Source: an uncultured Actinomycetes bacterium
Lineage (GTDB): Bacteria; Actinomycetota; Thermoleophilia; Gaiellales; Gaiellaceae
DNA: 64,000 bases
NCBI GenBank assembly: GCA_963839425.1
Contig: CAWIUX010000005.1
Location: 258,991 to 322,990, forward strand
Direction of reading: 5' to 3'
Shown: piece by piece, positions 19,002-30,761 of the stretch
Layout of the letters: each line of letters opens with the position of its first letter
Position numbering within the stretch: position 1 is the first letter of the stretch
The notes under the pieces: generated by a model
The model's database searches: none
Told to the model about the DNA's origin: nothing
Seen by the model: the letters and a program-made list of their open reading frames with translations, nothing else
Made by a program: the position numbers and the translations under genes

Positions 19002-19037
19002 AGTACATGGGCCGTGAAGGATTCGAACCTTCGACCT
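19002..19037 (-). repeat. Partial copy of the tRNA-Lys 3' end (att-like direct repeat)
   Basis: 19008-19037 is identical to 30689-30718 (variable loop, T-arm and 3' acceptor strand of the tRNA). The match extends to 19002 vs 30683 with 1 mismatch. Confidence 0.8.
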
Positions 19038-19081
19038 GCCACAAGGATCGCGGTGGCGATCCCGCTGCGGTGGAGCGACTC

Positions 19082-20085
19082 CTAGGCGCCGAGCGCGGTG
19101 TATACGAGCTCGTAGGCGCGCACCGCGTCCTTGCGGGACTGCGCCTCACGGAGCGCGGCGTCGTCGATCTTTGCGGCCACGCCGTCGATGAAGCGCCACT
19201 GCAAGACGCTCCGCCGCACGGCCTCGACAGCATCCTCGGTGTACGGGTAGAGGTCGAAGCCGAGCCGCTCGCCGTTGTCGCCGTAGCCGCAGCGGCGGAA
19301 CTCGACCGCGAGCTCGAGCGTCTCCATGAACGCGGTCGCGCCGACCATGTTGTCGTCGTCGAAGGTGCCCCAGCCCGAGTTCGCGTGCTGATGCCCGAGC
19401 AGCCCTTCCGCCGCAAGCAGCGCCGCGTACTCGGCGAGGTTCTCGCCGTTCATGATCAGGTGCTGCCAGTCCATGTTCACCTTCACGTTCGTCGAGCCCG
19501 CGGTCGCCGAGCTTGTGGATCACGTGGAGAGTCATCCCGATGTTCCGCATCATGATCTTCATCGCCGGCTCCGAGTTCTTGTGCTCGAGCCACAGCGGCT
19601 GGCCGTGCTCGGCCAGCTTCCCCGCGATCGCCGCCATGCCGTCGATGAACCAGGCCCAGGTGTCCTCGTACGGCGTCTGGAACGGATAGTTGTAGCCCTC
19701 GATCCCGGGCCAGACGATCATCGGCACGCCGATCTCGCCCGGCGAGCTCGGCGCCGGCGACCGCGATCCGGACCGCCTCCGCGCGAAGCTCGGGGTCGGG
19801 GTTGACAGCCCGCCGCGCCCGAAGCGGGGGTCGAGATGGAGCCCGCCGGCAAGGCAATAGATGTCGTGGTCGGGGCCGAGTGCCTCGCGGATCTCGTCCA
19901 GGTTCTCGCTCGTTCAGCTCGGCCGGATAGTGGAACTCGTACCCGTCGATCAGGTCGCCGAGCCCGTCGACGGCCCGCCTGACCCGCTCCACGGTCGTCT
20001 CGCCGGCGTGGTCCGGCTGGTACCCGCCCGGGACAAACCGGGTGACCATCGACCCGAACGCCCAGATGCCGAGACTGGTCTTCAT
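19082..20085 (-). pseudogene. Sugar isomerase/epimerase, xylose-isomerase-like TIM barrel (at least 4 frame switches)
   Basis: Start ATG 20085 has an AAGGAGA RBS. Pieces MKTSLGIWAFGS..., ENLDEIREALGPDHDIYCLAGGLHLDP, PMIVWPGIEGYNYPFQTPYED and VNMDWQHLIMNGENL lie in different frames. Confidence 0.75.
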
Positions 20086-20108
20086 GGTTTCTCTCCTTTT
20101 TCCGAGGT

Positions 20109-21112
20109 TCACCGAGCCTGAAGGGGCGAGCCGAACTCGGCGACGAAATCCAGCAGCTGCCGTTCCGCATGGCTCGTCGGAACCTGCGAGTGATCGGCGT
20201 ACGGCAGGACGACGATCTCCTTCGCGGCTGTGATCGCGTTGTAGGCGGCGAAGACGGTCGACGGCGGCGTGATCGTGTCGCGCAGCGCCGACCGAGACGA
20301 GCGTCCGCGCCTGGATGCGGGTCGCCAGCAGGGCGTTGTCGACGTAGCGCAGCGTCAGCCGGGCGCGCTCTTCGAGCTCAGGGTGCATGCGCCAGGTACG
20401 TGACGAGCTCCGTGTACGGCGGGTCGAACGCCACGTCCATGCCGCGCTCGATGTCGCAGAGGAACGGGACGTCGGCGTGGCAGAGCCGGACGAGCTCCGG
20501 GCAGAGCGCGGCGGCGGCGAGGGCGAGCGCGCCGCCCTGGCTCGCGCCGGCGACGCCGATGCGCGCCGGGATCGACGCCGGGGAGCTCGCCGCGGTCTCG
20601 ACCGCGCGGACGGCGTCGACGTAGAGGCGACGGTAGTAGTAGGTCTCCGGGCTCGCGATTCCGCGCGTCATGACGCCGGGATGCTCGGGCCCGGATGACC
20701 CTGCGCCCGGGTCGGCGGTGTCGCCGCGCGACCAGGTCCCGCCCTGCGCCCGCGTGTCCATGACGAACGTCGCGTAGCCGCATGCCGGATAGAGGGCGTG
20801 GGCCGCCGGAAGGTCGCGGCCGCCGCCGTAGCCGATGAACGTGACGCGGCAGGGAAGCTCCGCGTCGCCGGCCTCCGCCGGCCGGAGGTACCAGGCCTTC
20901 ACCGGGTCGCCGTCGGCGCCGCTGAACGTGACGTCGTAGGCCGCGAGGCGCCCGTAGACCGGCTCGCCGATAGGGCTCGACGTCGACCTCGGCGGCCGCG
21001 CTGCGCGCCGACGCGAGCGCGCGCTGCCCAGAACTCGTCGAGGCCCGGCGGCTCCGCCGCCGCGGTGCGGTACGAGCGCAGCTCGCGCGAGCGGCAGGTC
21101 GAAGAGCGGCAT
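20109..21112 (-). pseudogene. CE7 acetyl xylan esterase / cephalosporin-C deacetylase (frame-disrupted)
   Basis: MPLFDLPL start, GASQGGALALAAAAL nucleophile elbow and a C-terminal ...TPPSTVFAAYNAI...HSQ segment recovered in another frame. Confidence 0.75.
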
Positions 21113-28275: not shown

Positions 28276-29128
28276 TGGCAGCGGCGCAGCCCGAAGCGCG
28301 CGGAGCCTGGCGCCGTTCTCGAACGCGCCGGTGTACGTGGTCGCGCTCGCGCTCGGCGGCGGTCGTGATCGTCCCGATCGCCTACGTCGTGCTCGGCGGC
28401 TTCCGCACGACCGGCCAGCTCGCGTTCGACCCGGTCGGCCTGCCGCATCCGTGGGTGACGCACAACTACACCAAGGTGATCACCTCGGGCGCCTTCTGGC
28501 GCCAGGTCGGCAACAGCACGATCATCGCCGCGATCGCGACCGTGCTCGTCGTCGGCGTCAGCGCGCTCGCGGCGTATCCGCTCTCGCGCTTCCAGTTCCG
28601 CGGCCGCGAGGCGATCTACACCTTCTTCACCTTCGGGCTGCTCTTCCCGATCGCGGTCGCCGCGCTGCCGCTCTACCTCCTGCTGCGCCAGCTCGCACCT
28701 CGACGACACGCTGCTCGGCGTCGCGCTGCCGGAGGCGGCGTTCGGGATCCCGATCACGATCATCATCCTGCGCCCGTTCATGCGGAGCGTCCCGGCCGAG
28801 CTCGAGGACGCGGCGGCGATCGACGGCTGCACGAGGTTCGGGTTCTTCCTGGCGGATCCTGCTCCCGCTCTCCCGCCCCGCGCTGATGACCGTGATCATC
28901 CTGTCCGTGATCACGAGCTGGAACAACTTCATCCTGCCGCTGCTCGTGCTGACCGACCCGAACCACTGGACGCTCCCGCTCGGCGCCGCCAACTACTCGA
29001 CCGAGCACAGCGCGGACACGGCCGGCGTCCTCGCCTTCACCACGCTCTCGATGATCCCGGCGCTCGTGTTCTTCCTGTTCGCCGAGCGGCGCATCGTCGG
29101 CGGTCTCTCCGGCGCGGTCAAGGGCTGA
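28275..29128 (+). pseudogene. ABC sugar transporter permease 2 (MalG/UgpE-like), frame-disrupted
   Basis: The ATG overlaps the permease 1 stop (TGATG). [18 protein letters not shown]-loop and a C-terminal [13 protein letters not shown]...[12 protein letters not shown] lie in different frames. Confidence 0.7.
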
Positions 29129-29139
29129 GCCCCCTCCCG

Positions 29140-30727
29140 GTGGAGTTCGAGAATCCGGTCCTGCCCGGGATGTACCCCGACCCGAGCGTCTGCCGGGTCG
29201 GCCGCGATTTCTACCTCGCGTGCAGCAGCTTCGAGTACTTCCCGGGCGTCCCGATCTTCCACAGCCGCGATCTGGTCGAACTGGCGTCCGATCGGCCACG
29301 CGCTCACCCGCAGGAGCCAGCTCGATCTGGCCGGCGTCCGCAGCTCCGGCGGCATCTACGCGTCGACGCTGCGCCACCACGACGGGACGTTCTACCTCGT
29401 GACCACGCACGTCGAGCGCGGCAACTTCCTCGTCACCGCGCAGCATCCGCGAGGCCCGTGGTCGGATCCGTGCTGGCTCGACTCGGAGGGGATCGACCCG
29501 TCGCTCGCGTTCCTCGACGACCGCGTCTACTACACGCGGAACGGCCCGGCGCCGACGCCGATCACCCGTTCATCTACCAATCCGAGCTCGCCTGGTCGGA
29601 GGGAGCGGCAGTCAGTCGCGCGAAAGCCGCGCGTGATCTGGAAGGGGACCGGCGGATCTGGCCCGAAGCGCCGCACCTGTATCGCCGCGGCCGCTGGTAC
29701 TACCTGCTCGACGGCCGAGGGCGGGACGAGCTACGGCCACTCGGTCGTCGTGGCGAGGAGCACCCGCCCGTACGGCCCGTTCGCGCTCTCGCCCCACGGG
29801 CCGCTCCTGACGCACCGGGATCGTCCCCGCCACCCGATCCAGGCAACCGGCCATGCCGACCTGGTCGAGCTGGATGACGGGAGCACGTGGGCGGTGCTCC
29901 TCGGGATCCGGCCGATGGCGGGGCGCCACCACCACCACCTGGGCCGCGAGACGTTCCTGGCGCCGGTCACGTGGGGCGCGGACGGCTGGCCACGCATGCC
30001 GCCGCTCGAGCTGCACATGGAGGGGCCGGCGCTTCGACGCTCGCCACAGGCCGCGTTGGCCCAACGCGACGACTTCGCGGCCCGCACGCTCTCCCGCAGC
30101 TGGCTCTTCGTCCGCAACCCCTCCAGCCGGAACTGGTCTCTGCGGGAGCGGCCCGGCTGCCTGCGGCTCTGGGGCTCGCCCGTGTCTCTCGGCGACGTCG
30201 CATCCCCCGCTCTCGTCTGCCGGCGCCAGCAGCACTTCGAGGTGACGGCCAGCACGCTGGTGGAGTTCGAGCCGCGCCACGCCAACGAGCAGGGCGGGCT
30301 CTGTGTGAGAGCGAACGAAGAGTTTCACGCCGCGTTGCTGGTCGGGCTCGGCGAGAGCGGACGTGAGCTCAGTCTCGTCCGGACGCTACACGGGCAGACG
30401 CGGACGCTCGGGCGGGCCAAGCTGGCCCGAGGACCGGTGACGCTGTCCGTGGAGGCAACGGCGCGTGAGTACACGTTCCGGGGCGGTGCCGGCAGTTCTC
30501 TCGAGGTGCTCGGCCGCGTGCCGACGAGGGCGCTCTCGGCGGAGACGATCCTGAGGAGAACCGGCACGCATCACTTCGCGGGCGCGACGATCGGCCTGCT
30601 CGCAACGGGTGCCGGCCGCAGGTCGACTGCGCCGGCGGACTTCCACTGGTTCGAGTACGTCCCGAACCCGGTCGAGGGCTCTAGTGCATGGGCCGTGAAG
30701 GATTCGAACCTTCGACCTTGGGATTAA
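29140..30727 (+). pseudogene. GH43 beta-xylosidase/alpha-L-arabinofuranosidase with a C-terminal beta-sandwich domain; frame-disrupted in the 5' third; ORF ends inside the tRNA-Lys gene
   Basis: [59 protein letters not shown] and [18 protein letters not shown]43 motifs. The last about 1 kb is in one frame. Confidence 0.7.
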
Positions 30728-30761
30728 GAGTCCCCTGCTCTACCAACTGAGCTAACGGCCC
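30689..30761 (-). tRNA. tRNA-Lys (anticodon CUU)
   Basis: Reverse complement GGGCCGTTAGCTCAGTTGGTAGAGCAGGGGACTCTTAATCCCAAGGTCGAAGGTTCGAATCCTTCACGGCCCA folds as a cloverleaf. Anticodon loop is CTCTTAA. 73 nt, no encoded CCA. Confidence 0.93.

Follow-up and report, generated by a model that had tools for sequence, protein, structure and literature searches.

How does a chromosome come to carry a set of genes for the use of xylo-oligosaccharides beside a tRNA gene, when nothing that could have moved them is encoded there? The question is raised by a 64-kb stretch of DNA (the window, in what follows, means the whole of this stretch) that has a GC content of around 71% and derives from an uncultured Gaiellaceae actinobacterium. 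Within it, a segment of 11,651 bp at positions 19038-30688 lies between the gene for tRNA-Lys(CTT) and a displaced copy of the 3' end of that gene. This segment, which we refer to as the island, is a genuine insertion at the tRNA-Lys(CTT) 3' end of a Gaiellaceae chromosome, because the repeat is exact and is found only twice, because a metagenomic relative retains the empty junction, because the locus in 80 further relatives is free of the island genes, and because the cassette itself is found elsewhere in other contexts.

The tRNA-Lys repeat and the empty site

The last 30 nt of the tRNA gene, TGGGCCGTGAAGGATTCGAACCTTCGACCT, encompass the variable loop, the T-arm and the 3' strand of the acceptor stem. 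Exactly two copies of this 30-mer are found in the window, in the same orientation (Table 1), and no third copy exists in the window even when up to 3 mismatches are tolerated. In 100 dinucleotide-preserving shuffles of the window the 30-mer was matched 0 times. The similarity between the two copies extends a further 6 nt past the tRNA 3' end, as AGTACA (19002-19007) and AGTGCA (30683-30688), and the sole mismatch in this extension is found at 19005/30686. An earlier reading of the same sequence (the original prediction) had described the duplicated 3' end, the short extension and the flanking genes wecB and ctaC. The duplication is indeed exact and on the side and in the orientation that had been given, the flanks are correct, and the extension is real, but its mismatch had been placed at 19002/30683. 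The intact tRNA gene is identical over 73/73 nt to the tRNA-Lys of several relatives.

In order to view the locus in its ancestral setting, 80 loci were fetched via ctaC from GTDB genomes, all of them from Gaiellaceae, Gaiellales or 'Actinomycetes' metagenome-assembled genomes (MAGs), with CtaC identities of 54-68%. The gene order S8 protease, hexapeptide transferase, GFO oxidoreductase, UDP-glucose dehydrogenase, wecB and tRNA-Lys, and then ctaC, ctaD and usp, is kept in around 30-45 of the 80, the number varying by gene. Both wecB and tRNA-Lys were located in roughly 30 relatives, and in approximately 20 of these the start of wecB lies 24-33 nt from the tRNA; in two loci (L077 and L027) wecB, tRNA-Lys and ctaC are immediate neighbors. 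When six-frame fragments of the island were compared with these loci, not one of the 80 showed a true homologue of an island gene at a distance of up to 10 kb from ctaC.

The empty site itself was provided by L086, a metagenomic relative recovered from a metagenome scan with the 30-mer plus its 6 flank bases. The first 197 nt of L086 are 98% identical to window positions 18841-19037, which include the wecB start, the 24-nt spacer and the core of the repeat. Past this core, L086 runs directly into the rest of a minus-strand tRNA-Lys, and beyond the tRNA 5' end it is homologous to the ctaC side of the window. The two junctions of the window and L086, aligned three ways, are an attL/attR/attB triplet. 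The search for an empty site among relatives, which the original prediction had proposed as a check, is hence answered by an attB-type junction and by a locus that lacks the island genes in all 80 relatives. A further candidate from the scan, L085, was set aside, as it shares only the 6-nt flank that the search pattern required and is uninformative.

The interval between the tRNA and ctaC is variable in its own right. On the wecB side, around 20 relatives keep tRNA-Lys at about 24-26 nt from the wecB start, but the window, L086 and 7 of the loci have the tRNA in reversed orientation. The spacing from tRNA to ctaC ranges from 98 to 9769 nt across the 80 loci (L001-L080). A large PAS/GAF histidine kinase occupies this interval in 43 loci and is not found in the window. 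One relative, L064, has its tRNA in the same orientation as the window and carries a 9-kb insert without a repeat. When representative open reading frames (ORFs) between wecB/tRNA and ctaC of the relatives were searched with Pfam, no recombinase was found among the matches listed, which represent 25 families.

Cargo of the island

The island harbors all of the parts of a CUT1-type ATP-binding cassette (ABC) locus, as judged with Pfam: an SBP_bac_1 substrate-binding protein (SBP), two BPD_transp_1 permeases, a MalK/MsiK-type ATPase, predicted xylan-active glycoside hydrolases (GH) and a carbohydrate esterase (CE), and a LacI-family repressor (Table 1). The nine-gene list of the original prediction, running from the sugar isomerase to GH43, is thereby confirmed, and the palindrome AAACGTTATCGATAACGGTT, which had been put forward as the LacI operator, is present; its role as an operator is predicted. 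Family membership suggests that the cargo would act as a self-contained xylo-oligosaccharide regulon. LacI and the palindrome would control the two divergent operons, and the SBP, the two permeases and the MsiK-type ATPase would import xylo-oligosaccharides, which may be acetylated or arabinosylated. The CE7, GH43 and GH3 enzymes, presumed to be cytoplasmic, would then mediate deacetylation and hydrolysis of the oligosaccharides to monosaccharides. An isomerase-like TIM-barrel gene appears to have been appended to this regulon, and hundreds of PF01261 proteins of soil actinobacteria share 80-87% identity with its stitched translation.

Table 1. Features of the island and its immediate flanks (window coordinates)
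Feature	Position	Strand	Evidence or remark
wecB (Epimerase_2, full length)	17931-18983	minus	flank of the island
att repeat 1, wecB side: partial tRNA-Lys 3'-end copy (variable loop, T-arm, 3' acceptor strand)	19008-19037	minus	
Xylose-isomerase-like TIM-barrel gene, PF01261	19082-20085	minus	333 aa in relatives
CE7 acetyl xylan esterase (AXE1), frameshifted	20118-21112	minus	Pfam AXE1 3.7e-50 on fragments; collinear with L081 1097-2086
MsiK-type ABC ATPase, many frameshifts	21115-22410	minus	ABC_tran fragments; L081 orthologue has ABC_tran and OB_MalK
GH3 glycosidase (N and C domains, Fn3-like), many frameshifts	22403-24814	minus	Pfam on separate fragments; L081 orthologue 789 aa
LacI-family repressor, frameshifted	24811-25816	minus	LacI helix-turn-helix and Peripla_BP_3 on different fragments; L081 orthologue
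Palindrome, candidate operator	25857-25876	unstranded	inverted-repeat search; divergent LacI/SBP intergenic region; predicted function
Sugar ABC substrate-binding protein (SBP_bac_1/8), frameshifted	25987-27293	plus	Pfam and L081 orthologue
ABC permease 1 (BPD_transp_1), frameshifted	27315-28275	plus	Pfam and L081 orthologue
ABC permease 2 (BPD_transp_1), frameshifted	28275-29128	plus	L081 orthologue
GH43 beta-xylosidase/arabinofuranosidase with GH43_C2 domain	29140-30727	plus	several frameshifts in the first third
att repeat 2: 3' 30 nt of tRNA-Lys	30689-30718	minus	
tRNA-Lys(CTT), intact	30689-30761	minus	ARAGORN; only tRNA called in the 64-kb window
ctaC	30822-31853	plus	flank of the island; ctaD also on this side

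Most of the cargo is known from other genomic settings. In two further loci, L081 and L082, the genes CE7-MsiK-GH3-LacI-SBP-permease-permease-GH43 are found in identical order and orientation, and a single collinear blastn alignment spans window positions 20131-30668 with 85% (L081) and 81% (L082) nucleotide identity. No tRNA-Lys or att-like sequence was found around the cassette in either of these loci, and the neighboring genes are unrelated. A stitched GH43 query also retrieves intact homologues, with identities of up to 80%. The isomerase gene is 86-88% identical at the nucleotide level to genes in L083 and L084, where it leads an isomerase-FGGY kinase-SDR operon; in the window, only the isomerase gene of this operon is left, and the cut follows immediately on its stop codon, at a distance of 44 nt from the repeat. 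A 7-bp perfect hairpin (GGATCGC-GGTG-GCGATCC, 19045-19062) is located within these 44 nt, is missing from the L083 and L084 operons, and may be a terminator. At the other end, the GH43 reading frame has no stop of its own and overlaps tRNA-Lys in antisense by 39 nt (30689-30727), ending with a TAA at 30725-30727, opposite the anticodon loop. The homology to L081 and the alignment of the isomerase (19086-20088) leave only around 110 nt of the island uncovered. The island is cargo from edge to edge, extending to within 0-44 nt of both repeats, with no former backbone left.

No recombinase or transposase was found in a six-frame Pfam scan of positions 19000-30730, which covered 111 stop-to-stop fragments of at least 55 aa. 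Only 20 families were matched, and these are cargo domains together with P-loop look-alikes of the MsiK Walker motif; the Phage_integrase, Resolvase, Recombinase and transposase families gave zero matches. The cis-mobilizable elements (CIMEs) are defined in ICEberg 2.0 as having 'intact attL and attR' and as having lost the genes for integration and transfer (PMC6323972). In the island, identical 30-nt att cores are present and the genes for integration and transfer are both missing. The island as it stands today is therefore a CIME-like metabolic element, made up of att sites and cargo and lacking an integrase. The original prediction had likewise reported no recombinase remnant in any frame, and its description of a coherent accessory module inserted at a tRNA 3' end agrees with the att-like repeats, the junction in L086 and the cargo-only content. 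It had also stated that the element lost its mobility genes; it is correct that none is present, but loss is only one possible history.

A contrast in composition between the island and its flanks, which had been set beforehand as a check, was not found. The GC content of the island is 0.685-0.74 against 0.70-0.72 in the flanks, and GC at third codon positions (GC3) is 0.88-1.0 per phase segment in island and flanks alike. Such a lack of contrast would be expected if the donor were another member of the Gaiellales.

Frameshifts in the cargo genes

A feature that the original prediction did not report is that all ten island genes are broken by frameshifts. The long ORFs of the island give partial Pfam matches and have a GC3 far under that of the flanking genes. 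The coding phase was instead followed with a three-phase GC3 hidden Markov model, gene finders based on GC-position log-odds having been dropped as noisy and strand-ambiguous. With this model the phase changes around 46 times in 11.6 kb while GC3 remains high throughout, and phase-wise translation yields recognizable pieces of all ten genes. The immediate flanks, at 13.6-19.0 and 30.8-35.8 kb, show one phase per gene and no breaks. Elsewhere in the window breaks are few, and are found in tatC and in a patatin-like gene. The tatC gene (around 38767-39700, minus strand) is spread over three frames, and the Pfam TatC match in its longest ORF covers only profile positions 89-208. This gene is essential and lies beyond the island, so residual indels are a general property of the contig, although their density is much lower there than in the island.

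The breaks were resolved by alignment with the related cassettes. Against L081 there are 133 gaps, 125 of which are not multiples of 3, and among the gaps the window has 90 insertions and 20 deletions of a single nucleotide. When the window, L081 and L082 are aligned three ways, 66 +1 insertions and 9 deletions are specific to the window. The isomerase gene, compared with its own relatives, has 3 one-nt insertions and 1 deletion (19490, 19735, 19806 and 19907), and the total of reading-frame breaks in the island is approximately 80-100. The two ends of the island, 19038-19489 and 29710-30688, are without such insertions, which fits with reads that are anchored in the unique flanks. After frame correction, the changes specific to the window comprise 157 synonymous and 54 non-synonymous substitutions and 0 stops over 3362 codons. 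The resulting ratio of non-synonymous to synonymous changes (N/S) is 0.34, as compared with 0.59 for L081 and 0.77 for L082, and the branch of the window is the shortest of the three. The frame-corrected substitutions thus show strong purifying selection.

The inserted bases follow a distinct pattern. In 40 of the 66 insertions the added base is the allele of the relatives at an adjacent polymorphic column, for which the null expectation is 10.7 ± 2.9, with a maximum of 20 in 2000 trials; when the null is limited to polymorphic junctions, it rises to 24 ± 3.9. For example, where T in one relative stands against G in the other, the window has 'TG'. The majority of the insertions (56/66) adjoin a third codon position. 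Homopolymer slippage was considered as a source and ruled out, as the inserted base equals its neighbor in 17/66 cases against a background of 0.37.

On the basis of these patterns, the frameshifts are very probably technical and the genes intact in vivo. The +1 insertions would have arisen in assembly or polishing, when diverged versions of the cassette (at least two copies or haplotypes) were collapsed into one consensus, because both alleles of a single-nucleotide polymorphism (SNP) stand in tandem, an arrangement that a mutational process has no reason to produce. The presence of more than one version of the cassette in the sample or the genome is thereby indirectly indicated. Frameshifts caused by indels have been documented in long-read MAGs (PMC9262707). 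The 442-aa GH43 ORF of the window is recorded on an NCBI/ENA contig of 552,527 nt, a length that is typical of long-read MAGs. In L082, MsiK is split and the permeases are fused (2019-3256 and 8161-9996), and many members of the 90%-identity GH43 cluster are truncated on long contigs, observations suggesting that frameshift errors are common in these related ENA assemblies.

If the island were instead truly decaying, the ten genes would be pseudogenes with real frameshifts. As given, every gene is indeed interrupted many times next to intact core genes in both flanks, and such multiple disruption is one of the marks of a pseudogene array. The further marks, namely a raised N/S, nonsense codons and a bias towards deletion, are missing. 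Bacterial pseudogenes display a deletional bias, but here insertions outnumber deletions by about 7:1. The inserted bases match the alternative allele at a neighboring polymorphic site much more often than chance would allow, GC3 is undiminished in the island, and the essential tatC is frameshifted as well. A period of neutral evolution long enough for around 80 indels is excluded, because of the low N/S, the absence of stops and the short branch, and we regard true decay as very improbable. The same values, together with the identity of the two 30-nt copies and the 98% identity of the flank to L086, give no support to the description of the island as old in the original prediction.

Route of insertion and known systems

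On balance, we favor, as somewhat better than an even proposition, a genuine insertion at the tRNA-Lys 3' end that is now in a CIME-like state, its integrase having acted in trans or having since been deleted, with frameshifts that are technical. Prior to insertion the locus would have consisted of wecB(-), 24 nt, tRNA-Lys(-), around 60 nt and ctaC(+). Recombination in the terminal 30 nt of the tRNA would then have placed the module between the tRNA and its former downstream flank, rebuilding a complete tRNA and leaving the displaced 30-nt 3' end beside wecB. Catalysis would most likely have been mediated by a tyrosine integrase, either given in trans or encoded by a gene that was later deleted. 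The simplest history is one of site-specific integration, with an integrase that was supplied in trans or lost afterwards.

The use of this site by other elements was looked for among viruses. The exact 30-mer is absent from the viral contigs searched, and a 22-mer gave 75 matches in IMG/VR viral contigs, 26 of which are partial copies of tRNA 3' ends, not all of them from tRNA-Lys. Most of these 26 were called as 3' halves of tRNA-Lys from the anticodon-loop sequence just upstream, and the 22-mer matches as a whole are mainly to tRNA-Met and tRNA-Lys(TTT) sites of other phyla. The partial copies indicate that the tRNA-Lys 3'-end site is used elsewhere by integrase-bearing elements.

Several points weigh against insertion by an integrase followed by a collapse of haplotypes. 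As no integrase was found, the catalytic step is itself a deduction. The attP of the circular form would be confined to around 90 nt between two convergent genes, which is too short for classical arm-type sites. The GH43 stop was lost at one junction and the isomerase operon was cut exactly at the other end, and ends as tight as these are not usually seen in a self-contained element. Nor is L086 isogenic with the window, as its ctaC has 72% nucleotide identity and a CapA-like gene lies between its tRNA and ctaC. The origin of the insertions in collapsed haplotypes is drawn from sequence patterns only, and the synonymy of the alternative alleles, at 77% observed against 69% under the null, does not discriminate.

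Two other insertions of the cargo-only kind were encountered. In the window, the sufD 3' end is present in two 300-nt copies (44114-44413 and 46438-46737) that are 98% identical. Between them lie around 2 kb with a patatin-like gene on the minus strand, which is itself broken up over three or more frames, and no recombinase is visible. In L052, a plus-strand tRNA-Lys (5904-5976) and a partial copy of around 44 nt, which reaches from the anticodon stem to the 3' end and finishes at 9829, bound a segment (5904-9829) with two PD40 beta-propeller genes and a gene for a secreted 396-aa protein. None of the other loci among the 80 has this segment, in which Pfam detects no integrase, and L052 is the only one of the 80 relatives with a partial tRNA-Lys copy. 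There are three independent cases (the island, the PD40 segment and the sufD insertion), and it is conceivable, if unlikely, that the 3' ends of conserved genes in Gaiellales, of tRNA-Lys(CTT) and possibly of sufD, act as reusable landing pads for recombinase-free cargo modules. Such modules would depend for their movement on an integrase encoded elsewhere or on single crossover at short homology, as a cassette-like form of gene gain. In the same reading, the island may be polymorphic in the population, hence the collapsed consensus.

The island could also have entered without any integrase, in a Campbell-type event in which circular cassette DNA carrying a stretch of the tRNA-Lys 3' end underwent a RecA-mediated single crossover that duplicated the homology. 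An island without a recombinase, whose ends lie tight on the repeats, would be accounted for in this way, as would the segment in L052 and the sufD insertion, whose 300-nt repeat exceeds the length of a typical att core. However, a shared stretch of 30-36 nt stands at the minimum length for homologous recombination, and the origin of a circular intermediate is left unexplained. Williams reportedly described, in 2002, the stretch from the variable loop to the tRNA 3' end as the classical sublocation of tyrosine-integrase att sites, and it is exactly this stretch that is repeated here. We consider the Campbell-type route doubtful on these grounds. An assembly chimera, in which a cassette from another population or locus was threaded in via shared tRNA sequence, would be in keeping with the mixed-haplotype consensus of the island interior and with the related cassettes in other contexts, which come from assemblies with neighboring ENA accession numbers, presumably of one project. 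Against this, both junctions require a copy of the tRNA 3' end, and a partial copy joined to island-specific sequence must be an att scar in some genome. Moreover, long-read assemblers would not be misled by a repeat of only 30 nt, no indels are found in the final 450 nt and 970 nt at the two ends of the island, which run on into the flanks without a break, and the left flank is the same as that of the empty site in L086. A chimera is accordingly held to be quite improbable, and site-specific insertion at the tRNA 3' end is the reading that we retain.

Much of the biology here is already familiar, in the form of the tRNA island, the CIME-like state and the xylo-oligosaccharide locus. What the island adds is a clean example of how an uncultured and streamlined soil actinobacterium gains a whole carbohydrate regulon, with both junctions and the empty site known and no mobility gene. 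In some respects it mirrors the CIMEs, having att-like direct repeats at the 3' end of a conserved gene, cargo only, and no genes for integration or transfer. However, CIMEs descend from, and are mobilized by, a cognate integrative and conjugative element (ICE) or integrative and mobilizable element (IME), with accretion, whereas no partner or backbone remnant was seen here, and the host of the CIMEs compared is a streptococcus rather than an uncultured Gaiellaceae actinobacterium. The island also resembles the tRNA-targeted islands and prophages that employ tyrosine integrases, in its 3'-end insertion, its duplicated variable loop, T-arm and acceptor strand, the regenerated tRNA and the empty site. 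It differs from them in that an integrase beside the tRNA is missing, the composition does not deviate and attP arms would have no room.

Clustered indels are known to fragment gene calls in long-read metagenome assemblies (PMC9262707; proovframe preprint 10.1101/2021.08.23.457338). Unlike the known long-read frameshift artefacts, those of the island are not linked to homopolymers but are +1 insertions that pair SNP alleles and are concentrated in an accessory segment. Accessory regions of long-read MAGs can hence hold dense 'both-allele' insertion errors that mimic pseudogenization, and such errors would mislead gene calling, pangenome studies and the inference of decaying islands. With respect to the cargo, the closest known systems are actinobacterial loci for the uptake of xylo-oligosaccharides, such as BxlEFG-BxlA of Streptomyces, which is energized by MsiK. 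The locus in the window departs from them in having the ATPase gene inside the cluster and in the addition of CE7, GH43 and the isomerase-like gene. Like these loci, it brings together a CUT1-type SBP, two permeases, an MsiK-type ATPase, cytoplasmic beta-xylosidases and a LacI-type repressor.

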